DNA of 62,400 nucleotides from a virus. Lineage: Duplodnaviria > Caudoviricetes. The DNA lies in IMG/VR virus record IMGVR_UViG_3300024518_003383, positions 1-62,400 of that record; one strand, written 5' to 3'. A program made the translations under genes and the position numbers. The notes under the pieces were generated by a model that saw only the letters and a program-made list of their open reading frames with translations, had not been told where the DNA came from and did no database searches. Each line of letters opens with the position of its first letter. Within the stretch, counting starts at the first letter, position 1. This document shows positions 978 through 55,735 of the stretch, piece by piece.

Positions 978-1436
978 ATGGCAAGCCAACCCCGCAAGCC
1001 GCACCGGCGACACTACCGAACGACGACGCGAGGGGGACTCGCACGGGAGACGGCGATCGGTGCGCTGTTGTATCCGGAGAAAGTCGAGCGGCCGAAGACC
1101 CGCGACGAGTGTCCCGAGTGTCGGCCGTGCCCCTTCGTCGGGTGCAAGTGGAACACGTATCTGGACGTCCAGCGGACGGGGATGATCCGATTCTCCCGGG
1201 ACGGCGTCGAGCCGTGGGACGTCCCGGCGTCGACCTCGTGTGTGTTGGATGTTACGGACCGGGGCAGGGCGACGCTCGAAGAGATCGGGGACGCAATGGC
1301 GATGACGCGGGAGCGTGCGAGGCAGATCCAAGACGCGGCGCTCGCAAAGCTCGAAGCGGACCGGGGCGAGTACGCGGACCAGTTCGGGGCCGGGGAGATC
1401 TCCGGCTGGTCCGCCTGGTGGCTGGCGAGGTACTGA
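978..1436 (+). CDS. Cys-rich sigma70 region-4 HTH protein (allele A)
   Basis: RPKTRDECPECRPCPFVGC...SCVLDV...TLEEIGDAMAMTRERARQIQ; the last part is a sigma70 region 4.2 signature. Confidence 0.85.
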   Translation: MASQPRKPHRRHYRTTTRGGLARETAIGALLYPEKVERPKTRDECPECRPCPFVGCKWNTYLDVQRTGMIRFSRDGVEPWDVPASTSCVLDVTDRGRATLEEIGDAMAMTRERARQIQDAALAKLEADRGEYADQFGAGEISGWSAWWLARY

Positions 1437-2655: not shown

Positions 2656-2916
2656 ATGCCAAGAAACGGAATCACGACCGAAGCCGCCAACGCGTTTGGC
2701 CTCATGTTCTGCCGCTCGTGTGGCGCGGACGTCCGACGGTGCGGCGTCATGGCCAAGCCCGGGGAGTCCGTGGTCCTAGACATCGGGCACAAGCCCGGCG
2801 CCCCGTGGGCCCGTGTGTCGCGTGCTCTGGTGTCGAGTGTCGAGGGGCTCGAAGCCGATGGGGTGTCGACGACAGACCTTCCCCGGTACCGCGCACACAA
2901 TTGCCCCGCGACTTGA
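2656..2916 (+). CDS. Small CxxC/HxC protein
   Basis: CRSC...HNC; conserved in allele B. Confidence 0.65.
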   Translation: MPRNGITTEAANAFGLMFCRSCGADVRRCGVMAKPGESVVLDIGHKPGAPWARVSRALVSSVEGLEADGVSTTDLPRYRAHNCPAT

Positions 2917-2927
2917 CACTCCGTCAA
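2913..2927. promoter_or_regulatory. Operator TTGAC-N5-GTCAA overlapping a TTGACA -35 box
   Basis: Palindrome; identical copy at 5154. Confidence 0.75.
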
Positions 2928-2978
2928 ATCCACGCAACGTTGCCCATTCACCCCCCCCCCCACACGAAAGCCGACCCC

Positions 2979-3830
2979 ATGACTATCAAAACAGGCCCCG
3001 CCGCATTCACGGACGTTCGCATCGTCGAAGACCTCGCCGAAGCCGACTATCACGCCCACGAGGATCTCTCGTCGACGAAGCTTCGCAAGTTCATGTCCTC
3101 GCCTCAGGAGTATTACGCGATCCACGAAGCGGAGACGATCGAGCCGCCGAAGAAGACCGCCGCGATGGCCTTCGGGACGCTCGTCCATGAACTGGTCTTT
3201 GAACCTTCGGCCGGACGCTACGCAATCGGTCCGAACGTAGGCAAGCGCACGAAGGCGTGGGCGAAGTTCGAGATGGACTGCGCTCGCGATGGTCGCTATG
3301 GCGTGAGCGAAGACGACCACGAGCGCGCCCGGACTTGCGTCGATTCACTACAGGCAAACGACATCGCGCGCATGCTTCTCTGGGAAGCGAACGGGGCGAC
3401 GGAAGAGACGGTCTTTGCTACCCACGAAGAGACCGGGATCAAGGTCCGTGCAAAGCTCGACCGGCGACTGGTGGGGGACGTATCGGCGATCGGAGACCTG
3501 AAGACCGCCGTCATGTGGCGGCCGTCTGAGTTCCCCCGCGCGATGTTGAATGGGGGATACGATATCCAGATCGCCCTGTATCACGACCTCGCCGCTGCGC
3601 TTCGTCAAGTCGAGTCGATGGACGCGTTCTTCGTGGTCGTCAATCCCAACCCGCCTCACGAAGTCGTGAGCATGCAAGTCGGGATGGCGACGATGCTCGC
3701 TGGCCGCGACAAGTACGAGAGAGGACTCCGCGACTTCGCAGCGTGCAAGGCGTCCGGTGACTGGCGTTGCAGGGAATCCCGCGAAGTGGTCCAGGTCGAC
3801 TTGCCCGTGTGGGCCCTGAAGAACGATTGA
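2979..3830 (+). CDS. RecE/exonuclease VIII-like PD-(D/E)XK nuclease (DUF3799-like)
   Basis: YH..LSSTKL, AMAFGTLVH, KVRAKLD, IGDLKT and YDIQIALY motifs. Confidence 0.85.
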   Translation: MTIKTGPAAFTDVRIVEDLAEADYHAHEDLSSTKLRKFMSSPQEYYAIHEAETIEPPKKTAAMAFGTLVHELVFEPSAGRYAIGPNVGKRTKAWAKFEMDCARDGRYGVSEDDHERARTCVDSLQANDIARMLLWEANGATEETVFATHEETGIKVRAKLDRRLVGDVSAIGDLKTAVMWRPSEFPRAMLNGGYDIQIALYHDLAAALRQVESMDAFFVVVNPNPPHEVVSMQVGMATMLAGRDKYERGLRDFAACKASGDWRCRESREVVQVDLPVWALKND

Positions 3831-3866: not shown

Positions 3867-5150
3867 ATGAGCAGCAAGATCATCCGACTCGACATCCTGA
3901 ACTTCAAAAAAATCACCGCCGTGCATATCGAGCCGAAGGGGTCGACCGTCATCGTCGCGGGGAAAAACAAGCAGGGGAAGTCGACAGTTCTCGACGCTAT
4001 CCAGGCCGCACTCGAAGGCCGCAAGTCCCTACCCGAAGACCCGATCCGCCATGGGGCACGCAAGGCGGAGATCGTCCTGGATATCGGGGACGTTACGGTG
4101 AGCCGCACCTTCACGAAGAAGGGGACGAAGCTCGAAGTCCGTGGGGCCAACGGCAAGATCGCAAGCCCCCAGGCCGCGCTCGACTCGCTCACACAATCGC
4201 TCACCTTCGACCCCCTCGCATTCCAGCGGATGGAATCGAAGGAGCGGGCGCGAGTCCTCCGCGAACTCGCGGGGCTCGACACCAGCGAAGAGGAAGCGAA
4301 GATCGCGGAGACCATGGAGACGCGTCGAGCCGTCAAGCGCGAGGCGAAGGCGCTCGACGCGAAGGCGGGTGCAGGCGCACCGCATCCCGGCGCGCCACTC
4401 CAGAAGACGCCGATGTCTGAGGTACTCGCGCGGCTCGACGAAGCGACCGCGAGCCAGCGGGCTGCACACGAAGCGCAGGAGGTAGTCCGCAAGCGAAGCG
4501 GCAAGGCGCTGGAGTCTCGCCAGACCGTCGAGAAGATCGAAGCGCAGATCGAGCGATTGCAAGCCCGGCTGGAAGAGTGGACCGCCGCGAGGACGAAGGA
4601 GGAAGAGGCGGTGCGATGTGCTGTCGCCGAAGCCGAAACGCTCGAAGCCGCGAGCAGGGTTCACGACCACGACGACATCCGGCAGGAACTCGACACCCTC
4701 GAAGATACGAACGCGAAGGTCGAAGCGAATCACAAACACGAAGAACTCGTCGCGGAGCATCGAGCGAAGGAAGACGAGGTCGACCGGTTGACGGAGACGA
4801 TCGACGAACTGCGCGAGGCGGTGTCCGCCAAGATCGAGGCGGCATCATTCCCCGTCGATGGGCTCGCGGTTGACGATGACGGGGTGGTCTTCGACGGCGT
4901 CCCCTTCGAGCAGGCCAGCGGAGCGGAGCGCCTGAAGGTGAGCGCAGCGATCGGGCTCGCGCTGAATCCCGATCTCCGGATCCTTCTAATCCGGGACGGG
5001 AGCTTGCTCGACGACGACAGCATGGCCGCGCTCGAAGTCTTCGCCGAAGAGAACGACGCGCAGGTATGGATCGAGTGTGTGGGGCACCGCGAGGGCGCTG
5101 CGATCGAGATGGTCGACGGACACGCGTCGGACGATGGCGACGAGTTCTAG
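3867..5150 (+). CDS. SMC/SbcC(Rad50)-like ATPase
   Basis: Walker A GKNKQGKST, long coiled coil, ASGAE signature, LLIRDG Walker B. Confidence 0.85.
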   Translation: MSSKIIRLDILNFKKITAVHIEPKGSTVIVAGKNKQGKSTVLDAIQAALEGRKSLPEDPIRHGARKAEIVLDIGDVTVSRTFTKKGTKLEVRGANGKIASPQAALDSLTQSLTFDPLAFQRMESKERARVLRELAGLDTSEEEAKIAETMETRRAVKREAKALDAKAGAGAPHPGAPLQKTPMSEVLARLDEATASQRAAHEAQEVVRKRSGKALESRQTVEKIEAQIERLQARLEEWTAARTKEEEAVRCAVAEAETLEAASRVHDHDDIRQELDTLEDTNAKVEANHKHEELVAEHRAKEDEVDRLTETIDELREAVSAKIEAASFPVDGLAVDDDGVVFDGVPFEQASGAERLKVSAAIGLALNPDLRILLIRDGSLLDDDSMAALEVFAEENDAQVWIECVGHREGAAIEMVDGHASDDGDEF

Positions 5151-5153
5151 GCC

Positions 5154-5168
5154 TTGACACTCCGTCAA
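5154..5168. promoter_or_regulatory. Operator TTGAC-N5-GTCAA / -35 box
   Basis: TTGACACTCCGTCAA in the intergenic gap. Confidence 0.75.
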
Positions 5169-5219
5169 ATGAACGGGACGCTCTTCGTCCGACAACCCCA
5201 ACACAAGAAAGCCAACCCC

Positions 5220-6290
5220 ATGAACGACCAATACCAAGAGACGACGCAAGCCGGAACCGAGATCCAAGTTATCCCCGCCACAGCATTGCAGGAGGTCACA
5301 CGCTCGGAGATCGAGCAGCAAGTCGACACGGCTCGCAAGTACCCTCGCATGGTGTCGCGCTGTCGTGATAACGCGCTAGGCCTTGCGACGATGGACCAGG
5401 AAATCGCGGCGCAGTGCTTCTATTCGATCCCGCGCGGCGGGAAGAAGATCGAAGGGCCGAGTGTGAGGCTCGCGGAGATCCTCGGATCGTCCTGGACAAA
5501 TCTTCGCTATGGCTCGCGCGTCGTCGAAGTCGGGGCAAGCGTCGTGACTGCGCAGGGCGTGTGCCACGACTTGGAAACGAACGTGGCGATAACGGTCGAA
5601 GTGCGGCGGAACATCCTAGACAAACGAGGGAACCGATACGGGCAGGACATGATCACCGTAACGGCGCAAGCGGCGATGTCTATCGCCTTGCGGAACGCGA
5701 TCTTCAAGGTGATCCCCCGCGCCATGTGGGAAGGGATCTACCGCGAGGCCAGGTCCGCCTCGCTCGGGAAAGGGACCACGGAACAAAAGCGCGCGAGCGT
5801 TCTCGACTGGTTTGGACGGCGGAAGGTTACGGCCGAGCAGGTATGCGAACTCGCCGGCGTCCGGGCCGTCGACGATCTCGATCTCGACCGGCTTATCACG
5901 CTCCGCGGCGTTACGACTGCCGTCCGCGACGGAGACACCACACTGGCGGCCCTGCTCGCGCAAGCTGCCGGGCACGGCGAAGGCAAATCCACGTTATCGG
6001 ACGCGCTCGCGGAGATGAAAAGAGCGAAGGCCGCGGCGGCCGCGACGGAGACGGAGGGCGCCCCCGAGCCGCACGACCCCGCACAAGCGGCGAAGGCCCC
6101 GGAACTCACGAGCGCGCCCGCCGATGCGGAAAGCCCCGTAGAATCGACGCCAGCCCCTCAGAGCACGCAAGGCGAAGAGGTGCCCCCGCACGACCCGGAT
6201 ACCGGCGAAGTCCTGGACACGCCAGCACCGGACCCGGCAGACGAAGACGAGTATACCGACCCGGGGCCACCGGCCGGGGAGGGATTCTAG
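5220..6290 (+). CDS. Putative single-strand annealing/recombination protein
   Basis: ARKYPR..CFYSIPRGGKKIEGPSVRLAE phage family seen next to RecE; acidic disordered tail. Confidence 0.55.
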   Translation: MNDQYQETTQAGTEIQVIPATALQEVTRSEIEQQVDTARKYPRMVSRCRDNALGLATMDQEIAAQCFYSIPRGGKKIEGPSVRLAEILGSSWTNLRYGSRVVEVGASVVTAQGVCHDLETNVAITVEVRRNILDKRGNRYGQDMITVTAQAAMSIALRNAIFKVIPRAMWEGIYREARSASLGKGTTEQKRASVLDWFGRRKVTAEQVCELAGVRAVDDLDLDRLITLRGVTTAVRDGDTTLAALLAQAAGHGEGKSTLSDALAEMKRAKAAAAATETEGAPEPHDPAQAAKAPELTSAPADAESPVESTPAPQSTQGEEVPPHDPDTGEVLDTPAPDPADEDEYTDPGPPAGEGF

Positions 6291-6291
6291 G

Positions 6292-6546
6292 ATGGCGGTC
6301 GACCCCGAAGCCACGGTCACGATCCGGATAGTCGACCTCGTGGCGCTCGTTGACGACGCCAGCACGCGGGCGGAGGTCCGCGGCGCTCCCCCCGGCTTCG
6401 AGGACGTCCGCGCGAGGACCATGCTCCGCCGGGTATGCAACGAACTCGCGGGGCTTGCGGGGGACGTGGCGAAACGAAACGAGCGTGGCGTCCACCTCGC
6501 GCGCGAGCATGTGGCGACCATGCTCGCCAGCCTTGCGGACGACTGA
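6292..6546 (+). CDS. Hypothetical protein
   Basis: ORF packed between its neighbours. Confidence 0.6.
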   Translation: MAVDPEATVTIRIVDLVALVDDASTRAEVRGAPPGFEDVRARTMLRRVCNELAGLAGDVAKRNERGVHLAREHVATMLASLADD

Positions 6547-6592
6547 GGCGGACGTTTACGTGCCACACAACACGCGAAGGAGACTCGACCCC

Positions 6593-7249
6593 ATGAAAGC
6601 GACCACCACAGTACTCGCGGCGGCCCTGTTTGCTGGACCACTGCAGGCGGCGGAGACGGAAAAACACGATACGCCGATCGAAGAACTCGACACGGACACC
6701 GTGCTGCGCTCCGGGCTGACCCACGCGATCGAACGACGCAAGCGGATCCCGTGGCATGAGAAACGCGGGGAGGTCGTCCACTGGGAAGTGTGCCGCAAGT
6801 CGCCGGGCGGGTGTGCGGTCCACATCGAGGCGATCGTGGATTACATCGTCGACGCGTCCGAAGCTCACGAGGTGGACCCCTACGTGCTCGCGTCCATCGT
6901 GTGGACGGAGTCCAGATACCAACCCTATGCAACGGGCAAGGCTGGAGAGATGGGCATAGTCCAGATCCACCCGAGCAACCGCCACGGGTTGCAATGGATG
7001 CGCAAGGGTAGGGAGGGCGAGCGATACCGAAAGACCTGCAGGAAGCAGGTGGGCCAGTGTCAACACGAGGTGGCGCAGCACGGCGCGGGCATACTATCGC
7101 GGTACGCCGCCCGGTGCGGGAGCATCGAGGGCGGCCTGGCGGCATACAACACGGGCAGGTGTGACAGCACGGCGGGCGCGAAGTATGCCACCCGGGTGCT
7201 GCGACTTGCTGGCGACTTGAGACACGAAGTCGAAGGAGGGTCGGCGTAG
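6593..7249 (+). CDS. Secreted SLT lytic transglycosylase
   Basis: Signal-like MKATTTVLAAALFAGPLQA; catalytic TES, GIVQI and AAYNTG motifs. Confidence 0.85.
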   Translation: MKATTTVLAAALFAGPLQAAETEKHDTPIEELDTDTVLRSGLTHAIERRKRIPWHEKRGEVVHWEVCRKSPGGCAVHIEAIVDYIVDASEAHEVDPYVLASIVWTESRYQPYATGKAGEMGIVQIHPSNRHGLQWMRKGREGERYRKTCRKQVGQCQHEVAQHGAGILSRYAARCGSIEGGLAAYNTGRCDSTAGAKYATRVLRLAGDLRHEVEGGSA

Positions 7250-7250
7250 G

Positions 7251-7832
7251 ATGGCGGGTGCAGGCATTGACCGGGGGCCTGCACCCGCCGGCGTCCTCTC
7301 CATCGACCCCGCGAGCAAGTGCGGGTGGGCGATGTGGACCGGCGGCCGACTATTCCGGCTCGGGACGTGGAAGCTCTCCAGCGGGAAGCCGCTCGAACTT
7401 CGCTTTCGCCAAGTAGCGAAGCACGTCGCGCGGGCCGTCGGAGAACTACAGCACGCAAGCGGCGGCCGCGTCGTCGTCGCGTTTGAGGAAGCCCCGTTCA
7501 ACACGACCGGCATCGACTCGACCATGTCCGCCTATGGACTGCGAGCCCTGCTCATGGTCACGTGTGCGGAGCAGCGGGTCCGCTACCTTCGGATCAACGT
7601 CAGCACGGCGAAGAAGAGCGCGACCGGATACGGCGACGCACACAAGGCGGAGATCATCGCCGCGATCTCCAAACGATTTTCGATCCCGAAACTGTCCGAC
7701 GATGAAGCCGACGCTGTCGCGGTTGGCATCGTAGCCCACGAGCGGTTGGGCCTAACACTCACAACCCCAGCAATCGAGCCGCTCCCCCGGTTGCCACGAC
7801 CACCGAAGAAGAAACGGAAGGCCAAACGATGA
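7251..7832 (+). CDS. RuvC-like Holliday junction resolvase
   Basis: SIDPASKCGWA, VAFEE, AKKSATGYG..HK and DDEADA. Confidence 0.85.
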   Translation: MAGAGIDRGPAPAGVLSIDPASKCGWAMWTGGRLFRLGTWKLSSGKPLELRFRQVAKHVARAVGELQHASGGRVVVAFEEAPFNTTGIDSTMSAYGLRALLMVTCAEQRVRYLRINVSTAKKSATGYGDAHKAEIIAAISKRFSIPKLSDDEADAVAVGIVAHERLGLTLTTPAIEPLPRLPRPPKKKRKAKR

Positions 7833-10395: not shown

Positions 10396-10424
10396 TTGAC
10401 GGTGCGTCAAGTCGGCGCTACTGT
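10396..10424 (+). promoter_or_regulatory. sigma70-type promoter TTGACG-N17-TACTGT with a TTGAC-N5-GTCAA operator
   Basis: Near-consensus hexamers, 17-bp spacer, intergenic. Confidence 0.75.
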
Positions 10425-10457: not shown

Positions 10458-10670
10458 ATGAGCTTTGAAAAGTACCCCCTGCCCGCCGGCGCGGAGTGGG
10501 ACCCGGAAACTAACGCGGTTTACCTGAATCGGAAGCAGGACACCGTATTCACGTATCGCCTCGGCGGGCGAGTACACGTATCGGTGGCTTCCGCGGCCGT
10601 CTCCTGCTCCGTCGCCATCGACCACCGGATCGTCCTCCATGTCCTCGCCCGTGCTGGTGTGCTGACATGA
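10458..10670 (+). CDS. Hypothetical protein
   Basis: AGCCAACCCC-ATG start. Confidence 0.65.
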   Translation: MSFEKYPLPAGAEWDPETNAVYLNRKQDTVFTYRLGGRVHVSVASAAVSCSVAIDHRIVLHVLARAGVLT

Positions 10671-14126: not shown

Positions 14127-14526
14127 GTGGAGCGGCCGCGCGGTTGAGTTCGTCTCGCGGGCGTCGGCGCATGTGTGCGCGCTGGCCTACGTCCGGCCCC
14201 AAGAAATGTACAGCAGCAGCCGACACCGACGCCACTCGCGGGCGCGGATGGTCGTCTGGTGGATACTCCGGGAGATCGGCATGTCCTACCCCAAGATCGG
14301 GGAGGCGTTCCGGAGACACCACACGACAGTTATCCATGGCGTGCGCGAGGTCGAAGAGTCGATCGCCCACGGCGGATGGGCGGCAGACGCTGTCGACCTC
14401 GTCTGCTCACAGGCCTTCGTCGGTTCTCCAGGCGTCGACCCTTACAGCGGCCCCGCGATGCTACTGCAGGACAGTGCCCCTACTTTCGACAATCTCGCGC
14501 GGGTGTCTCCGCGTGCTAGCATTTGA
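14119..14526 (+). CDS. Stand-alone DnaA C-terminal (domain IV) HTH protein
   Basis: ARMVVWWILREIGMSYPKIGEAFRRHHTTVIHGVREVE. Confidence 0.8.
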   Translation: MREWSGRAVEFVSRASAHVCALAYVRPQEMYSSSRHRRHSRARMVVWWILREIGMSYPKIGEAFRRHHTTVIHGVREVEESIAHGGWAADAVDLVCSQAFVGSPGVDPYSGPAMLLQDSAPTFDNLARVSPRASI

Positions 14527-14537
14527 CGGAGGGTCAA
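14523..14537. promoter_or_regulatory. Operator TTGAC-N5-GTCAA overlapping a GGAGG RBS
   Basis: TTGACGGAGGGTCAA directly after a TAGCAT -10-like box. Confidence 0.65.
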
Positions 14538-26366: not shown

Positions 26367-27779
26367 ATGGCCGAAGCAGACCCGCAACCCGTCGACCCCT
26401 CCACACTCGAAGCCGGCTCGGGTGTGATCATCCCCCCGAGGCCCTCTGAGGGGAAGTGGAAGCTGCAGACCGCGATCGGACTCACTCCTGAGAGGCTAGG
26501 GGGGATGATCACGAAGCTATGGGACGGCGACTCGATCGAGTTCCACGGGTTCGCGGAGGAACTGGAGTCGAGGGATAGCCACTATGCTTCGCAGCTTACG
26601 ATCCTGAAGAACGCGATCACTTCGCTGGAGTGGGGGATCGAAGGACCGGAGGGGACGATACTCGAAGCGAGCACGCAACACCTCGTCAAGTCGCCCGTGT
26701 GGAAGGGGTTGACGAAGCATCTGCTCGATGCGGAGTCGAAGGGTCACGCGTGCGTCGAGATGTTCTGGCGCACTGGACCGGCGGGGACGATATGGGCGCC
26801 GCGGGAAGTGAAGTGGGCCGACCCTCGGAACTTCGGATACAAGGGGCAGCAGCTAATGCTGCGCGACTCCGAAGCGCCTACGGACTTGGAAAAGTTCCGC
26901 GAGCTTCCTCCGTACGTGTTCGCCGTATATGAAACGTCGCGCAAGTCGGGGCTTCCTTTCCGCAATGGGCTCGCGCTCCCGTGCAGCGTCATGCACCTCT
27001 TCAAGTCCTACAGTTTCAAGGACTGGGTCCAGTACCTAGGGATCTTTGGGATGCCTGTCCGGATCGGTTCGTACAATCCAACGTCGAAGGACGGGGACGT
27101 GCAGGAACTCCAGGACGCGCTCGACGCGATCGGCGAGTTCGCGTCGTGCGTCAAGCCGCTGGCCCACACGATTGACATTGTGAACCCGGGCGGGCAGGGC
27201 AACGGCGAGGCCTTCCACGAGATGGTAGACACCTGTAATCGTGAGATGTCGAAAGTGATAAACGGGCAGACGATGACGAGCGATGATGGGTCGAGTCTGT
27301 CGCAGGCCGCCGTCCACGATCTGGTCCGGCACGACATCTCGGAGAGTGTCGCGGAGGACCTCGCCGAAGCGCTGACGAAGACCGTGCTCCGTCCCTTCAT
27401 TGATCTGAACTTCGGGCTGGACTCCGCCGACGAGTACCGGGTGGTCGTGTCGTTCGACGACGCGGAGGACCTGAAGAACACAAGCGACGGGTTATCGCCA
27501 ATGATGGCCGCGGGCCTGTCCGTCAAGGAAGAGGAAGCGTACGGCCGATACGGTTGGGAGAAGCCGGTGGACGGCGACGTGGTCCTTACCAGCAAGGGCC
27601 GGGCCGTGTTCTCCCAGACGCCAAAGGATGACGGAGACGGAGACGGAGACGGAGACGGAGACGGAGACGGAGACGGAGACGGAGACGGAGACGATGCGGC
27701 GGCCCCCGAAGAAGGCGCGGCCCCGGACGATGCCGGTGAGCCGACGGAGGAAGACGCGGAGGAAGGGGGCGGGGTATGA
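26367..27779 (+). CDS. Portal protein (Mu gp29/DUF935)
   Basis: FGMPVRIGSY, CNREMSKVINGQT and VHDLVR motifs. Confidence 0.9.
   Translation: MAEADPQPVDPSTLEAGSGVIIPPRPSEGKWKLQTAIGLTPERLGGMITKLWDGDSIEFHGFAEELESRDSHYASQLTILKNAITSLEWGIEGPEGTILEASTQHLVKSPVWKGLTKHLLDAESKGHACVEMFWRTGPAGTIWAPREVKWADPRNFGYKGQQLMLRDSEAPTDLEKFRELPPYVFAVYETSRKSGLPFRNGLALPCSVMHLFKSYSFKDWVQYLGIFGMPVRIGSYNPTSKDGDVQELQDALDAIGEFASCVKPLAHTIDIVNPGGQGNGEAFHEMVDTCNREMSKVINGQTMTSDDGSSLSQAAVHDLVRHDISESVAEDLAEALTKTVLRPFIDLNFGLDSADEYRVVVSFDDAEDLKNTSDGLSPMMAAGLSVKEEEAYGRYGWEKPVDGDVVLTSKGRAVFSQTPKDDGDGDGDGDGDGDGDGDGDGDDAAAPEEGAAPDDAGEPTEEDAEEGGGV
27630..27689 (+). repeat. (GACGGA)10 microsatellite encoding (DG)10
   Basis: Ten perfect copies in the portal C-terminal tail. 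Confidence 0.95.
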
Positions 27780-29391: not shown

Positions 29392-29649
29392 TCAGTAGCC
29401 GCCAAGGTCTTTGATCACCGCGTCGAATGATTCAAGCTGCCTGAGGGATAGGCGGGTGTCTTCGTCTTCGACCCACCGCCCGCCGACCCACTGGTGTTCG
29501 TAGACTTCGCACGTCCGCGACAGACACCAGGCCGCCATCGCGTGGACCATCATCGGTTCGCTGCACTGGGGGCACAGGATCGGGAACTCAGGATCGCAAG
29601 CGGTCTCTTCGAGTTCCGCGATCATGGGGGCGTCTGTTGGGTCGGCCAT
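29392..29649 (-). CDS. Small zinc-binding protein (only clear minus-strand gene)
   Basis: CPQC..C....C; TATGGT 7 nt before its ATG. Confidence 0.6.
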   Translation of the reverse strand: MADPTDAPMIAELEETACDPEFPILCPQCSEPMMVHAMAAWCLSRTCEVYEHQWVGGRWVEDEDTRLSLRQLESFDAVIKDLGGY

Positions 29650-29672
29650 CGGGTGGACCATACCGCGCCGAC

Positions 29673-29687
29673 TTGACGGGGCGTCAA
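29673..29687. promoter_or_regulatory. Operator TTGAC-N5-GTCAA between divergent genes
   Basis: TTGACGGGGCGTCAA. Confidence 0.7.
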
Positions 29688-29735
29688 AGTCCCGCATTTC
29701 GCGTGCTCTGGTGTCCGGTGATACGACTGCATTCG

Positions 29736-30995
29736 ATGCCGGCAGAACTCTATATCTACGACGCGGTCGTGAGCGACGACTGGTGGGCGGGGATCACCGC
29801 GAAGAGCGTGCTCCGTTTCCTCGCCCTGAACTCAGGCGAAGAGCGGGTCACGGTCCGGATCAACAGCCCTGGCGGTGAGGTCAACGAAGGCGTGGCCATA
29901 TACAACGCGCTCCGCTCCGCTGCTCCGAAGGTCGACGTGGTCGTCGATGGTATCGCGGCGTCTGTCGCGTCGTTGATCGCAATGGCCGGAGATACGATCT
30001 CGATGGCCCCGGGCTCCATGATGATGCTTCACGAAGCGTGGGCTCTCGCTTTCGGAGACCAGCACGCGATGCGGAAGCGGGCGGACGTGCTGGAGACTCA
30101 CGTCGAGGCGATGCTTGATATCTACGCGACGCGGTCCGGGCTCAAACGCGACGCCGTGGCTGCTCTTCTCAAGGATGAAACGTGGCTATCTGCAGACGAC
30201 GCCGTCGTCCATGGGTTCGCGGACAAGGCGATCCCCGCCAATGCGAAGCCCGTCGAGCCCATCGCCGATGACGGTTCTAGCGTGATCGCATGGGTCGAGC
30301 ACCCGGCCTTCGCTTCGTACCGACACATTCCGAAGCAGTGCGCGAGCGCGTTTGCTTCACTGCGAAAGCGCGGCACCACGGGGCATGACAAGCGCCCCGC
30401 CGCGTCAACTGAACGGCCCGACATCGAGGGGCCAACACCTGCCGGAGAAGTCGGCGCCCAACACCAACAGAGGAACACGAAAATGGAACTCGCTACGATC
30501 ATCGCCATGCTTGGCATCGCTGCAGACGCAACCGAAGGCGACGTTGCGACTGCTATCGCTTCCCTCCGAGACAAGGAGAAGAACGCTCCGAAGCTCGAAG
30601 ACTATGTCCCCCGCGCCGACTATGACTCGCTTAAGTTGAAGGTCGACGAGCGCGCCGCCGCGGACAAGGTCGCTGCTGAAAAGCGCCACCTTGCTCGCGC
30701 GACCGCTGCGATCGATCGCGGCTTGAAGGCCGGCGTCATCGCCCCCGCGTCGAAGGAGTACCACGCGCAGGCTTGCGCGACTGAGGCAGGGCTAGCCGCC
30801 TTCGAGGCCATGATCGGCGAGGCTCCGCCGGTCGTCGCAAACGAGAACCTCCACACGAGGGAGGCTCCCGGAGACGAGCCCACGTCACTCACCGCTGAAG
30901 AGAAGGCGAAGGCGAAGAAGCAGAACATCTCGGAGGCGACCTACCTCGCGTCAAAGCAGGACATCGCCTCGCGCTACCCCGGCCTTCAGGGCTGA
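29736..30995 (+). CDS. ClpP-type head maturation protease fused to a scaffold domain
   Basis: RINSPGG, GIAASVAS, MMLHEA, ETWL; Mu-like scaffold C-terminus with an internal ATG at 30483. Confidence 0.9.
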   Translation: MPAELYIYDAVVSDDWWAGITAKSVLRFLALNSGEERVTVRINSPGGEVNEGVAIYNALRSAAPKVDVVVDGIAASVASLIAMAGDTISMAPGSMMMLHEAWALAFGDQHAMRKRADVLETHVEAMLDIYATRSGLKRDAVAALLKDETWLSADDAVVHGFADKAIPANAKPVEPIADDGSSVIAWVEHPAFASYRHIPKQCASAFASLRKRGTTGHDKRPAASTERPDIEGPTPAGEVGAQHQQRNTKMELATIIAMLGIAADATEGDVATAIASLRDKEKNAPKLEDYVPRADYDSLKLKVDERAAADKVAAEKRHLARATAAIDRGLKAGVIAPASKEYHAQACATEAGLAAFEAMIGEAPPVVANENLHTREAPGDEPTSLTAEEKAKAKKQNISEATYLASKQDIASRYPGLQG

Positions 30996-37902: not shown

Positions 37903-38039
37903 AGAACTACAGGGACGTGGCCGCCCATTTATTGTCTGGTAGTTCGGTCTCCTATTCTGACGTCATGAGCATGACCCCCGCGGAGGCGCTCGACCTCTTC
38001 AAACGGATCCAGAAGGCGCGGGCGAATGGCTGGAAGTAA
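37878..38039 (+). CDS. -1 frameshift extension of the tail chaperone
   Basis: A-AAA-AAA slippery site at 37878-37884; the -1 frame is open to 38039. Confidence 0.7.
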   Translation, partial: KKRSGLVVENYRDVAAHLLSGSSVSYSDVMSMTPAEALDLFKRIQKARANGWK

Positions 38040-40443
38040 GCTCACCGCGTCGCTAACCCTAGGGATCAAGGCGAACCTAGGGGGAGCGAATCGCTACCTG
38101 CAGACGATCCAGAAGATCGACAAGGCCCAGGCGGCGCTCGTCTCTGGTGGCACGACGCGCGGGGGTGTGAAGCTTGAGTCGTCGGCGATGGCGAAGAGGA
38201 CGGCCGCGGTCCGGCGTTCTGCGAACACGGAGAAGAACGTAAGACAGGCCGCGGCGCAGTCCGTCTGGAAGACTCAGATGTCGAACATTGTCCGCGAAGA
38301 GCGGGCGAGGAAGACTGCGACCGTACGCGAGGAAAGAGACCGCGTGCGGTCTGTGCAGCGCGCCGCGAAGGCGGAGCAGCGGGCGAGGCAGCGGGCGCAG
38401 AACAACGTGGCGCGGTCGTGGAACCGCGAGCAGGCGAGGAAGCAGCGAGTCGAGGCGAAGTCGGCGTCGCGCGGGGGGAAGCGCGGGGCCTTCGGGTTGT
38501 TCGACCGTAGGAGGACGCCGGGCGGCGGGATGCACCTCGCGGCCAACGCTGCGCAGGTTTCCGCGGGAGCCGGCAGGATAGCGCGAGGGGCTTTCTCCGC
38601 GGTCTCCGTACCGCTGCAGGCGGCGCGCGAGCAGGGGCGATCTATCGCGGAGATCGGGACGCTGCTCGACGACTCGACAGATATCAGCATGAAGAGCGCG
38701 GACGCGGTCACGCGATCGGCCGCGCTCGAATATGGCAACGACGCGCAGTCGCAGGCGAAAGCCTATTACGACATCATATCGGCGGGCGCCGGGTCTGCAT
38801 CCGCCGCGGACGCGCTGCTCGCGGAGTCGAACCGGTTGGCCATCGCGGGCAATGCCGAACTCGGCGCGAGCGCGGACGGTCTAACGTCGCTGCTCAACGC
38901 CTACGGGCTCGAAGGTACCGAAGCGTCCCGGGCGACGGCGTCCCTCATGGCCGCGGTCAAGGCCGGAAAGACGACCATCCCCGAGCTCGCGACCTCGATC
39001 GGTCGGATTGCTCCGTCAGCGAACGCGCTCGGGATCTCCATGGAGGAACTCAACGCCGCGATCGCAACGACCACGAAGCAAGGCATCGACACCAACGAGA
39101 GCGTGTCGGGTCTGAAGGGGGCGTTCGCCAATATCAAGAAACCGAGCAAGGAAGCGAGGGAGGAAGCGAAGCGACTCGGGATCGAGTTCAACGAAACAGC
39201 GCTCCGCACCAAGGGCCTTGACCAGTTCATGCGGGAGATGGTCAACGCGGAGGGCTTCGAGCCCGAGAGCTATACCAAGCTCTTCGGGTCGATCCGCGGT
39301 GGCAATGCTGTGATCGCATTGACGGCCGGGAATATGGAAAGGTTCGGGGAAGCGCTCGCGGACCAGGCGGACGGCGCGGAGACTGCCGCGGCCGCTGTTC
39401 AGAAAATGATGGACACGGACGACCGGAAGATCCGGAGAGCCGAAGCAGCGATCGCCGACCTGAAGATCGAGCTAGGCCAGGGGCTTGCACCCGCGGCGCT
39501 CGATGTCGTCAAGCAGGTTACTCCGTTGGTGCGAGACCTCGCCAAGTTCGCTAAGGAGAACCCGGGCACGATCACGACGATCGCCAAGGCCACGATCGCT
39601 ATCGGGGTGCTTGCGGTAGGGATCAAGGTCGCGTCCGACGCTGTCCTCGTGTTCAACGCGGGTATGTCCGCGGCGAAGGTCGTCTTCCCGCTGGTCAAGT
39701 CCGGGGCCGAACTCGCGGCGAGCGGGATCAAGACGCTGGCCACGGAGACCGCTGCAGGGCAGGCGGCAACGAAGGCGCTCGGGACGAACCTGTCCGATAT
39801 CAGCACGAAGGGCGGAAAGGCGGGGGCCGCTGTCGGCGTGCTCGCGGCCGCTGTCGCCGGGTACACGATCGGGCAGCAACTGGACGACACTTTCAAGTGG
39901 TCGGACGCGCTCGCGGACGTTGCTGCCAATGCGACCTTCGCCGCGGACGAACTGATCACGCTGCAGAACATCCGGGACGCGCAGTCCCAGAAACAACTCG
40001 AACACCAGCGGCGCAAGCTTCGGCAGGAACAGGCCTCGCAGGATAAGGCCTTCCAAGCGGCGTCGACCCTAGGCGGTTTCGTCGGCGGCCTGGGCGTGAA
40101 GGGGTTAGACCAGTTTACCGGCAGGAAGGCAGAACGCGCGGCGGCACTCGCCAGCGTCGAAGGTCGGATCGGGGAGGAAGACGCGAGGAACCGAGCGCTG
40201 AAGAAGGCGGGCGTCGACCCGACAGACAAGCGCGCCGTGGCGGAGTTCGGACGGAAGCAGCGGGAAGCCTTCGGCGTTGGTAAGGCCTCGCCCGGAGACT
40301 CTGGCCCCGGCGGTAGCAAGGTCGAAGGGAACCTGGAACACACGATCAAGATCGAGGGTCTTCCGGATGGCGCTTCGGCGGTGGTCACGAAGACGAAGGA
40401 CGACACGGGAATGTTCCAGAACAGAGGGACGGCTTCGGGATGA
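38026..40443 (+). CDS. Tape measure protein (TP901 family)
   Basis: Ala-rich 805 aa; AYYDIISAG and GKTTIPELA motifs. Confidence 0.9.
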   Translation: MAGSKLTASLTLGIKANLGGANRYLQTIQKIDKAQAALVSGGTTRGGVKLESSAMAKRTAAVRRSANTEKNVRQAAAQSVWKTQMSNIVREERARKTATVREERDRVRSVQRAAKAEQRARQRAQNNVARSWNREQARKQRVEAKSASRGGKRGAFGLFDRRRTPGGGMHLAANAAQVSAGAGRIARGAFSAVSVPLQAAREQGRSIAEIGTLLDDSTDISMKSADAVTRSAALEYGNDAQSQAKAYYDIISAGAGSASAADALLAESNRLAIAGNAELGASADGLTSLLNAYGLEGTEASRATASLMAAVKAGKTTIPELATSIGRIAPSANALGISMEELNAAIATTTKQGIDTNESVSGLKGAFANIKKPSKEAREEAKRLGIEFNETALRTKGLDQFMREMVNAEGFEPESYTKLFGSIRGGNAVIALTAGNMERFGEALADQADGAETAAAAVQKMMDTDDRKIRRAEAAIADLKIELGQGLAPAALDVVKQVTPLVRDLAKFAKENPGTITTIAKATIAIGVLAVGIKVASDAVLVFNAGMSAAKVVFPLVKSGAELAASGIKTLATETAAGQAATKALGTNLSDISTKGGKAGAAVGVLAAAVAGYTIGQQLDDTFKWSDALADVAANATFAADELITLQNIRDAQSQKQLEHQRRKLRQEQASQDKAFQAASTLGGFVGGLGVKGLDQFTGRKAERAAALASVEGRIGEEDARNRALKKAGVDPTDKRAVAEFGRKQREAFGVGKASPGDSGPGGSKVEGNLEHTIKIEGLPDGASAVVTKTKDDTGMFQNRGTASG

Positions 40444-54705: not shown

Positions 54706-55060
54706 CCTCTTCGCGGCCCTGCTCGCGCTGTCGTTCCTTCCGGGATGCTCCGCGGCGTCCATCCCCCGCACGCTCGACGCCATCGAGACCGGCGCCGTCG
54801 CGCTCGATGTGGGCGTGGATAACCTGTCCGGCGTGTGCGTCGAGTACATGGGGAGTGAGGTCGCTAGATGCGAACGCGTGGCAGACGATGCCGAAGCGCT
54901 CGACTGTATCAAGCCCGCTCGCCAACGCGCCGAAGCTTGCAAGGCCTTCGTCGACGAGGTCGTCCGGCTGCAAACAGCGGTGGCCGAGAGCGTCGATAGA
55001 CTCCGCGAAGTGTGGCCAGATGTCGAGCCGGTCCTGCAAGACGCGGGTGTGGTGAAATGA
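54689..55060 (+). CDS. Lipoprotein (possible o-spanin)
   Basis: MSKRNSLFAALLALSFLPGC lipoprotein signal. Confidence 0.65.
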   Translation: MSKRNSLFAALLALSFLPGCSAASIPRTLDAIETGAVALDVGVDNLSGVCVEYMGSEVARCERVADDAEALDCIKPARQRAEACKAFVDEVVRLQTAVAESVDRLREVWPDVEPVLQDAGVVK

Positions 55061-55290
55061 CAGGGATCGCGCTCATGCGGGAGTTGTGGACGCACCGCGA
55101 GCTTCTGGCCCCGGTCCTGAAGGCGATCAAGGCGGTGGCATCTGCGGCCCGTATCACGATCGAAGTTAGGAAGCGCAAGGCGGACGGCGTCCAGCCATAC
55201 GACATTATCAGCGTCGACGCGCAGGATTTGATCGACGGCGGCCTCGAAGAGATCGAGGAGTTCGAGAACCGGAGAGGGAAAAGCAAATGA
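55057..55290 (+). CDS. Hypothetical protein
   Basis: ATGA-coupled. Confidence 0.55.
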   Translation: MTGIALMRELWTHRELLAPVLKAIKAVASAARITIEVRKRKADGVQPYDIISVDAQDLIDGGLEEIEEFENRRGKSK

Positions 55291-55733
55291 GCAAGTGGAG
55301 AGACGTTCGGACCATGACACCGATCGCGGATGACGCGGACTTCGTCGCAACGCAGACGATCCCGGCAGACTCGATCATGGAACTCGAAGACGAGAGCGAA
55401 ACCGGGACGGGTACCTATGGGTTCTCTTTCAAGGCGGTTCTACTCGACGTGAACAACGACATCGTTCTCCCGGGCTCGATGACGTTCGATGTCGAGATCA
55501 TCGAGACAGACGTCGTTACGGTGTCCGATCCCGCGGGGCCAACCGGGGCGACGAAGAACCTCCCCGTGATAGCGAAGGGGGACAACCGTGCAGGCGTCTC
55601 TGCATATTCTCAGTTTACCGCGGGCGGGCTCGGAGGCTCGACGATGTCGGGCGGCGTTACGGCTCGCATGACGAACTTCGCAAACATCCCGGGTGCCGCA
55701 ACGCAACTGGTGTTGCGGGGGCGCGAGGTCTAG
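55287..55733 (+). CDS. Hypothetical beta-rich protein
   Basis: Composition resembles virion proteins. Confidence 0.65.
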   Translation: MSKWRDVRTMTPIADDADFVATQTIPADSIMELEDESETGTGTYGFSFKAVLLDVNNDIVLPGSMTFDVEIIETDVVTVSDPAGPTGATKNLPVIAKGDNRAGVSAYSQFTAGGLGGSTMSGGVTARMTNFANIPGAATQLVLRGREV

Positions 55734-55735
55734 CC

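Follow-up and report, generated by a model that had tools for sequence, protein, structure and literature searches.

A stand-alone σ-region-4.2-like protein with a four-cysteine module, encoded by a marine tailed phage and by Myxococcota

Introduction

Several described systems resemble, each in part, the small phage protein that is analysed here. T4 gp33, a late co-activator and functional analogue of σ region 4, binds the β-flap; it is not known to bind DNA or to resemble σ in sequence. WhiB-like (Wbl) proteins of Actinobacteria and their phages are separate proteins that bind σ region 4; they carry a 4Fe-4S cluster held by Cys residues of a different spacing. Ogr/Delta of P2/P4 are small zinc-finger activators with a Cys4 zinc site. 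RinA, ArpU and LtrC are small late transcription activators of phages (PMC3152322, PMC3753634). Some activators of this kind have σ-like helices.

The protein described in this work, P0001, has something in common with all of these and differs from each. Its helix-turn-helix (HTH) is homologous to region 4.2 of primary σ (PF04545; Thermus σA, 1ku7) and has the same T-R-E-R-x-R-Q helix; compared to primary σ, however, P0001 is a stand-alone protein of 152 aa that lacks regions 1–3 and any detectable region 4.1 and carries a Cys4 module in front. It resembles T4 gp33 as a phage-encoded, stand-alone substitute for σ domain 4, but it retains the helix that reads DNA, and the half that binds the flap is not detectable in it. 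Wbl proteins, too, are small and have four Cys residues and a metal centre, the one of P0001 being predicted, and they act closely with σA region 4; in contrast to them, P0001 has no Wbl Pfam match up to E 10 and a different Cys spacing. From the RinA/ArpU/Ogr-type activators it is set apart by the Pfam and PHROG searches, which matched none of their families, and by its place: RinA-type genes lie directly before terS and the σ-4-like gene does not.

Results

A small gene in a tailed-phage genome

The window, i.e. the whole stretch of DNA analysed, is a complete IMG/VR virus record of 62,400 bases that is classed as linear. It is a tailed-phage genome (TerL, portal, protease and tape measure genes are present) with nearly all genes on the + strand, and the phage occurs in sequencing runs from seawater metagenomes. 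The features that frame the gene of interest are as follows.

230–973, + strand: DUF1353 protein gene (Pfam E 1.2e-19, phrog_1158)
978–1436, + strand: Cys4 and σ-region-4.2 gene encoding P0001, major variant (translation 152 aa)
1437 to about 1720: non-coding stretch 3' of the gene
2718–3830: exonuclease VIII-like PD-(D/E)XK nuclease
3867–5150: AAA ATPase
5154–6290: phrog_3657 gene
6350–7249: SLT transglycosylase
7251–7832: RuvC
21312–23387: ParB-methyltransferase fusion, 691 aa, upstream of the terminase genes
24841–26325: TerL
26367–27779: portal
29637–30995: head protease
38026–40443: tape measure
59715–60173, + strand: second gene copy encoding P0002, minor strain variant, 82% identical to P0001

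Because long non-coding stretches flank both sides, the DUF1353 gene and the σ-4-like gene look like a separate two-gene unit; in the second copy, an 846-nt non-coding gap (58169–59014) precedes the DUF1353 gene. A distance of 23 kb separates the σ-4-like gene from the terminase genes. Among about 40 window ORFs scanned, no other transcription factor was recognised, and another regulator may be present among about 30 further ORFs. Neither an integrase nor a repressor nor other lysogeny markers were recognised in the ORFs scanned, including 10 further ORFs compared with PHROGs. Elsewhere in the window, GGCGAC hexamer repeats occur at about 19950–20000, within a 457-aa ORF (19691–21064) that has no PHROG match.

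The ORF at 978–1436 is a real gene, because 1507 cluster representatives match in a HMMER profile search at E<=1e-30. In the database, the 168-aa product P0003 begins at an upstream ATG at position 930; that ATG is not conserved, as the open frame of the second copy is just 158 aa. Judging from the two reading frames, the true start is probably ATG 978 and the 168-aa product is too long. The translation contains C45-P-E-C48-R-P-C51-P-F-V-G-C56, S87-C88-V-L-D and T99-LEEIG...T110-RERARQI, i.e. all three motifs (CxxCxxCxxxxC, SCVLD and TLEEIG..TRERARQI) that a previous reading of the DNA, made from the sequence alone, had named.

The helix-turn-helix is homologous to σ region 4.2

Pfam Sigma70_r4 (PF04545) matches P0001 at residues 98–125 with E 3.5e-7 and 30.1 bits against a cut-off of 24.1. 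Up to E 10, Pfam reports nothing else, and σ region 2 is thus absent; the NCBIfam matches are the C-terminal ends of the RpoD, RpoS and RpoH models, all confined to residues ~93–134 and far under their cut-offs. Both searches thus agree with the sequence-only reading, which had seen no region 2. The PHROGs search of P0001 gave only phrog_351, a sigma factor (E 0.028), and phrog_19655 (E 0.22), and Pfam, NCBIfam and PHROGs hold no model specific to the Cys4 and σ-4.2 family beyond Sigma70_r4.

1269–1358, + strand: σ70 region 4.2-like HTH, residues 98–127, with T110-R-E-R-A-R-Q116 as recognition helix (PF04545, PDB profile search)

A profile search of the PDB matched only σA/RpoD region 4, with E ~1e-8 for Thermus σA region 4, and its alignment pairs tReRaRqie of P0001 with TRERIRQIE of σA. 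R111, R113 and Q116 are invariant among 73 family sequences, in which conservation of T110, E112 and R115 is 90% or higher. Of 130 family sequences, 122 have a T/S-R-E-R-x-R-Q recognition helix, as do the two window copies. T-R-E-R-x-R-Q comprises residues by which primary σ reads the −35 hexamer, as in the Thermus σA–DNA structure. Detectable homology does not extend over the whole of σ region 4: the PF04545 match spans only profile positions 21–48 of 50, and a Foldseek alignment to 1ku7_A (54 columns, TM 0.49) is too weak to tell whether the region 4.1 half has a counterpart. Together, the profile matches show homology of the HTH with region 4.2 of primary σ (σA/RpoD) only. Because T-R-E-R-x-R-Q aligns with σA, occupation of −35-like DNA by P0001 is plausible.

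Four invariant cysteines probably tie an N-terminal module to the HTH

Residues ahead of the HTH form a module in the alignments and in an AF2 model.

1014–1265, + strand: N-terminal module, residues 13–96, with helix 18–31, a Cys-bearing loop and β-hairpin 62–72
1110–1112 (C45), 1128–1130 (C51), 1143–1145 (C56) and 1239–1241 (C88), + strand: codons of the invariant Cys residues
1119–1121, + strand: codon of the private C48

Just four Cys residues, C45, C51, C56 and C88, are invariant in the family, in an alignment of 73 sequences as well as in one of 90 modules; a Cys at the C48 position occurs, among 126 sequences examined, only in the two window copies. The family pattern is C-x5-11-C-P-x3-C-x~30-C-x-L-D, which 126 of 130 sequences including P0001 fit, and the commonest spacing among the 126 is C-x6-C-x4-C-x29-31-C. 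The CxxCxxCxxxxC cluster, as claimed earlier, is therefore real in both window copies but is not the family-wide pattern. The alignments thus suggest as family signature a Cys4 site bridging the N-terminal loop and the first σ-like helix, and not a ferredoxin-like CxxCxxC.

AF2, run on alignment A2 (see below), models residues ~14–136 of P0001 as one confident unit (mean pLDDT 85.1, pTM 0.66), with pLDDT >90 over most of residues 20–130. The predicted order is strand 14–17, helix 18–31, a long Cys-bearing loop and a β-hairpin (62–64/69–72) in the N-terminal part, followed by a short helix 89–94 that begins at C88, helix 100–106, recognition helix 111–127 and two C-terminal helices of lower confidence. 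Folded by itself, the N-terminal module reaches a pLDDT of 79.8.

The best Foldseek match of the model is 1ku7_A, σA region 4 on −35 DNA (54 columns, TM 0.49, E 0.69), and no match of the whole model in the PDB reaches E<=1e-3. BFVD likewise gave none at E<=1e-3; in a wide VIA-align search the best Z is 4.1, for residues 96–152 only. For the N-terminal module there is no Foldseek match in the PDB at E<=1e-3, and Z>=2 is reached in 0 of 48161 chains. These searches detected no known zinc-ribbon or Wbl fold, blanks that are no proof of a new fold. A homodimer prediction with two Zn scored 0.02 and 0.01 against a mark of 0.42 and counts neither way on dimerisation.

The family is large and frequent in viral contigs

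A word-based search found 6 relatives only. A profile made of those 6 (A1) was searched with HMMER against 1.84 billion representatives of 50%-identity clusters and gave 15,358 matches at E 1e-3, 6,156 at 1e-10 and 1,507 at 1e-30, the top matches covering nearly the whole profile. From the family, alignment A2 was built of 73 members, each of at most 200 aa, and a separate alignment of 90 N-terminal modules; the invariant columns of A2 are P39, C45, C51, C56, C88, L90, R111, R113 and Q116. Ten long members that were scanned have extra HTH domains, and σ region 2 or 3 never rises above the Pfam cut-off in them. Named members are titled just “DNA-binding protein” or “sigma factor-like helix-turn-helix DNA-binding protein”.

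Relatives number 148 in viral contigs, and the nearest ESM Atlas clusters are 73–94% viral. Among 50,697 GenBank phage records, which include cultured myxophages as far as they are held there, tblastn at E<=0.01 found no family member; its 8 matching records are all Vibrio phage sigma factors, aligned over residues 99–126 only.

Neighbours of the family genes were surveyed at 106 of 108 loci with ORFs called in a crude way (L030 and L093, with no ORF over the match, were left out). Among 101 upstream and 105 downstream neighbours, each Pfam family is present 3 times at most on either side, and all-against-all clustering of neighbours gave no cluster in more than 6 loci. In other phages the neighbours are often DNA-metabolism genes (methylases, ParB HTH, DnaB, nucleases), and a relative of the window's ParB-methyltransferase lies within 6 kb of the family gene in 11 of 80 viral loci.

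Our literature searches found no paper on the Cys4 and σ-4.2 architecture. For myxophage groups, a preprint (10.64898/2026.09.14.751636) names a “transcriptional regulator” and “RNA polymerase subunits” but gives no detail in the passages concerned. While HTHs of this type are known, nothing searchable describes the Cys4 module, the stand-alone form or the myxobacteria-plus-phage distribution.

Myxococcota carry a chromosomal orthologue

A pattern scan of one genome per species gave 28 loci: 16 in Myxococcota, 2 in Bradymonadales, 2 in organisms named “delta proteobacterium” and 8 in others or unnamed; the scan required an exact CPFVGC-type peptide and is biased to near relatives. NCBI places Bradymonadales in Deltaproteobacteria, and GTDB in Myxococcota.

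Whole genomes were searched with profile A2 at E<=1e-12, scoring 12–18 first-look candidates per genome. In Myxococcota, sampled as the phylum around a Polyangiaceae MAG, a match is present in 184 of 301 genomes, mostly in single copy and with E 1e-57 to 1e-73; this 61% is a lower bound, because only 12–18 candidates were scored per genome and many of the MAGs are incomplete. Within the phylum of a Cellvibrionaceae MAG, the one match among 251 genomes is the centre genome itself (0/250 otherwise), and the same is true for the phylum of an Acidimicrobiia MAG (1/201, 0/200 otherwise). Set against these two phyla, the Myxococcota count bears out the proposal, put forward with the sequence-only reading, of a conserved uncharacterised chromosomal protein of that phylum.

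Twenty chromosomal loci were fetched, a choice biased to high-scoring matches on long contigs; 13 of them have 3–11 kb of colinear similarity in common, at a GC content of 56–72%. At one such locus (L113:4955-9104) the gene order is solute-binding protein, alpha/beta hydrolase, a 241-aa protein with no Pfam match, the orthologue, M19 dipeptidase, ParA-like ATPase and PurH; at another (L111:5170-7179) a MerR-type HTH gene lies directly upstream of the orthologue. The Myxococcota locus is thus a housekeeping locus and not a prophage. The chromosomal orthologues are longer than the phage protein (ORFs of ~180–260 aa, with an N-terminal extension), and the window protein is roughly 40–50% identical to them.

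A quick maximum-likelihood tree was built from 103 columns of 129 core sequences; its resolution is low (71 of 124 inner branches open) and its root a midpoint. In it, both window copies group with three viral rows, L034, L032 and L108 (SH-aLRT 94). This group falls outside a 60-row subtree (SH-aLRT 93) that holds all 13 syntenic chromosomal rows on short branches, and the deeper, longer branches are filled by viral rows. The earlier description of the gene as captured is not supported by this placement of the window pair in a viral clade; tree and identity, as far as sequence comparison can tell, argue against recent capture from a host chromosome. It is also possible that fast phage evolution mimics depth in a midpoint-rooted tree.

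As for the host, the distribution of the family points to Myxococcota or close relatives. The myxobacterial host proposed from the sequence alone is reasonable on that ground, but TerL and tRNA evidence adds nothing to it: a TerL search of 301 Myxococcota genomes gave 1 weak match of 33% identity, and there is no tRNA gene in the window.

The two gene copies are strain variants of one phage

P0001 and P0002 are identical at 124 of 152 residues without a gap, and the 28 differences leave every Cys untouched; all five Cys residues are the same in both, as the earlier reading of two alleles had it. dN/dS between the variants is 0.335 overall and 0.288 for residues 36–130, and the gene is under purifying selection (0.29–0.34).

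The copies arise from the record ends, which are diverged copies of one another: 1–1611 matches 58747–60348 at 83%, and 1793–3234 matches 60968–62400 at 88%. Logan contigs of four seawater-metagenome runs were aligned to 55000–62400. In runs X1–X3, one 31-kb contig matches 55000–58873 exactly, and from ~58.85 kb two alternative short contigs branch off it. One is identical to the window and has depths of 8.8, 17.1 and 5.7; the other is diverged and has depths of 31.5, 46.8 and 10.5, so that the window-identical form is the shallower. The diverged branch has a replacement at 60348–60968, with 181 letters between, which reproduces the 1611–1793 layout. We read the two “alleles” as co-occurring strain variants of one ~58.7 kb phage. 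Two alternative contigs at unequal depth off one 31-kb contig also suggest that the record runs through both variants: the assembly probably wrapped around a genome that is circular or permuted, beginning in one variant and ending in the other. The variant contigs stand beside shared identical sequence, and the cassette that holds the gene is therefore a variable patch. A poly-C run at ~2950/62123, ahead of the exonuclease gene, also differs in length between the variants, and contigs of X2 and X3 have 7 extra C at 62123.

TTGAC palindromes and a gene-start motif

Perfect TTGAC-N5-GTCAA palindromes occur five times per genome unit, the match at 62085 being the second copy of that at 2913.

2913–2927: palindrome, candidate operator ~60 nt 5' of the exonuclease gene start
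5154–5168: palindrome 5' of the phrog_3657 gene
10396–10410: palindrome 5' of the gene starting at 10458
14523–14537: palindrome
29673–29687: palindrome, start of the head protease region

The expectation is 1.16 matches even when one mismatch is allowed, which places the five observed far above chance, and TTGAC/GTCAA pairs at the other spacings from 0 to 14 are absent from the window. The palindromes at 2913, 5154 and 10396 lie ~60 nt before an ATG directly preceded by GCC(A/G)ACCCC; no motif-marked ATG is evident downstream of those at 14523 and 29673. With its TTGAC half-sites spaced by one helical turn, the palindrome would fit a −35 reader that binds as a dimer. A link between palindrome and protein family was sought and is not supported: the palindrome is absent from all 5 nearest viral relatives, taken as whole records, and the flanks of other members hold 2 in 871 kb of viral sequence and 0 in 244 kb plus 0 in 249 kb of genomic sequence. 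TTGACA is not enriched in the window (10 observed, 14.3 expected). The palindromes are candidate sites only, and that P0001 binds them seems doubtful.

Separately, in at least 9 genes the ATG is immediately preceded by (G)AA(A/G)GCC(A/G)ACCCC, an unusual, conserved start context beside which no Shine-Dalgarno-like sequence is evident. It is found at 2970, 3858, 5211, 8642, 10449, 13032, 15258, 44256, 62136 and other positions, and its 9-mer also occurs just inside the 5' ends of the σ-4-like and ParB-methyltransferase genes.

Discussion

Our analysis suggests, with the balance tilting modestly in its favour, that P0001 is a small, single-domain, metal-stabilised, stand-alone, sequence-specific DNA-binding transcription regulator, of which the metal, the DNA specificity and the regulation are the predicted parts. 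C45, C51 and C56 of the N-terminal loop and C88 would most likely hold one metal ion, with zinc as the default guess. C88 begins a short helix, the equivalent of helix two in σ domain 4, and the ion would clamp the N-terminal module onto the region 4.2-type HTH. The T-R-E-R-x-R-Q helix would then read TTGAC-like DNA alone, without the rest of σ; given that the recognition helix keeps the −35 residues of primary σ, such reading by the protein itself is probable. Once bound, the regulator would repress or activate promoters at such sites. In the phage, the two-gene cassette sits just upstream of the recombination/early module, and the targets might be phage promoters, host promoters or both, whereas Myxococcota would keep the chromosomal orthologue for a function of their own. 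The lack of a fixed gene partner fits a stand-alone regulator.

That the HTH is nearest to region 4 of primary σ, and not to ordinary regulators, can also be read as the mark of a σ domain-4 mimic, which would sit on the β-flap tip of RNA polymerase instead of host σ region 4, in function like T4 gp33, and either block formation of the σA holoenzyme or lend the polymerase a new −35 reader; the frequency of the family in phages, both among viral contigs and in the nearest ESM Atlas clusters, would suit such a role. Region 4.1 helps to hold the β-flap tip, however, and it is this part that is undetectable in P0001 and replaced by the Cys module, the Pfam match stopping short of it. In the model, the fourth Cys lies in the equivalent of the second helix of domain 4, and the protein's own N-terminal module may occupy the flap-binding face; a Cys4 staple on the helix that replaces region 4.1 would make canonical β-flap docking less likely. 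We consider the mimic unlikely. The same four invariant Cys residues could instead hold an Fe-S cluster that switches DNA binding in response to redox state or iron, which would make the protein an intramolecular analogue of the WhiB–σA region 4 pair. The extra Cys of the window phage does give CxxCxxC, and WhiB–σA region 4 structures are among the weak fold matches, if via their σ chains. Yet only the two window copies, 2 of 126 sequences, have CxxCxxC, the usual C-x6-C-x4-C-x~30-C spacing of the family is unlike the Wbl and ferredoxin motifs, and the Pfam search up to E 10 is empty of Wbl, so that we rate such a sensor as quite improbable, a little below the mimic.

A DNA-binding role outside transcription, for example recognition of a packaging, replication or partition site, would accord with the frequent DNA-metabolism neighbours in other phages and with the ParB-methyltransferase relatives near some viral family genes. 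Against it stand the distance of the gene from the terminase genes in the window, the lack of a conserved neighbour and the position of the chromosomal orthologues among housekeeping genes rather than in mobile elements; we hold this role to be very improbable. A stand-alone DNA-binding transcription regulator is thus the reading that we retain.

The family comprises more than 1500 clusters at 50% identity that have no model of their own, no structure and no findable paper, and its gene is single-copy and syntenic in most of the myxobacteria searched. Its build joins the most conserved DNA-reading element of bacterial transcription to a predicted metal module for which no fold relative was detected. 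The gene may serve as a marker that ties uncultured marine phages to myxobacterial hosts, and if the protein reads −35-like DNA alone, it would give a handle on promoter choice in a phylum with very large repertoires of σ factors and regulators. As a bolder proposal, which we put forward as a long shot, Myxococcota and many uncultured phages would use a free-standing, metal-clamped −35 reader in trans that competes or cooperates with σA at TTGAC-type promoters, perhaps under redox control, and the diverged phage copies would re-programme the use of −35 elements. If true, this would be a new class of promoter-level regulator, built from a piece of σ instead of one of the classical folds of repressors or activators.
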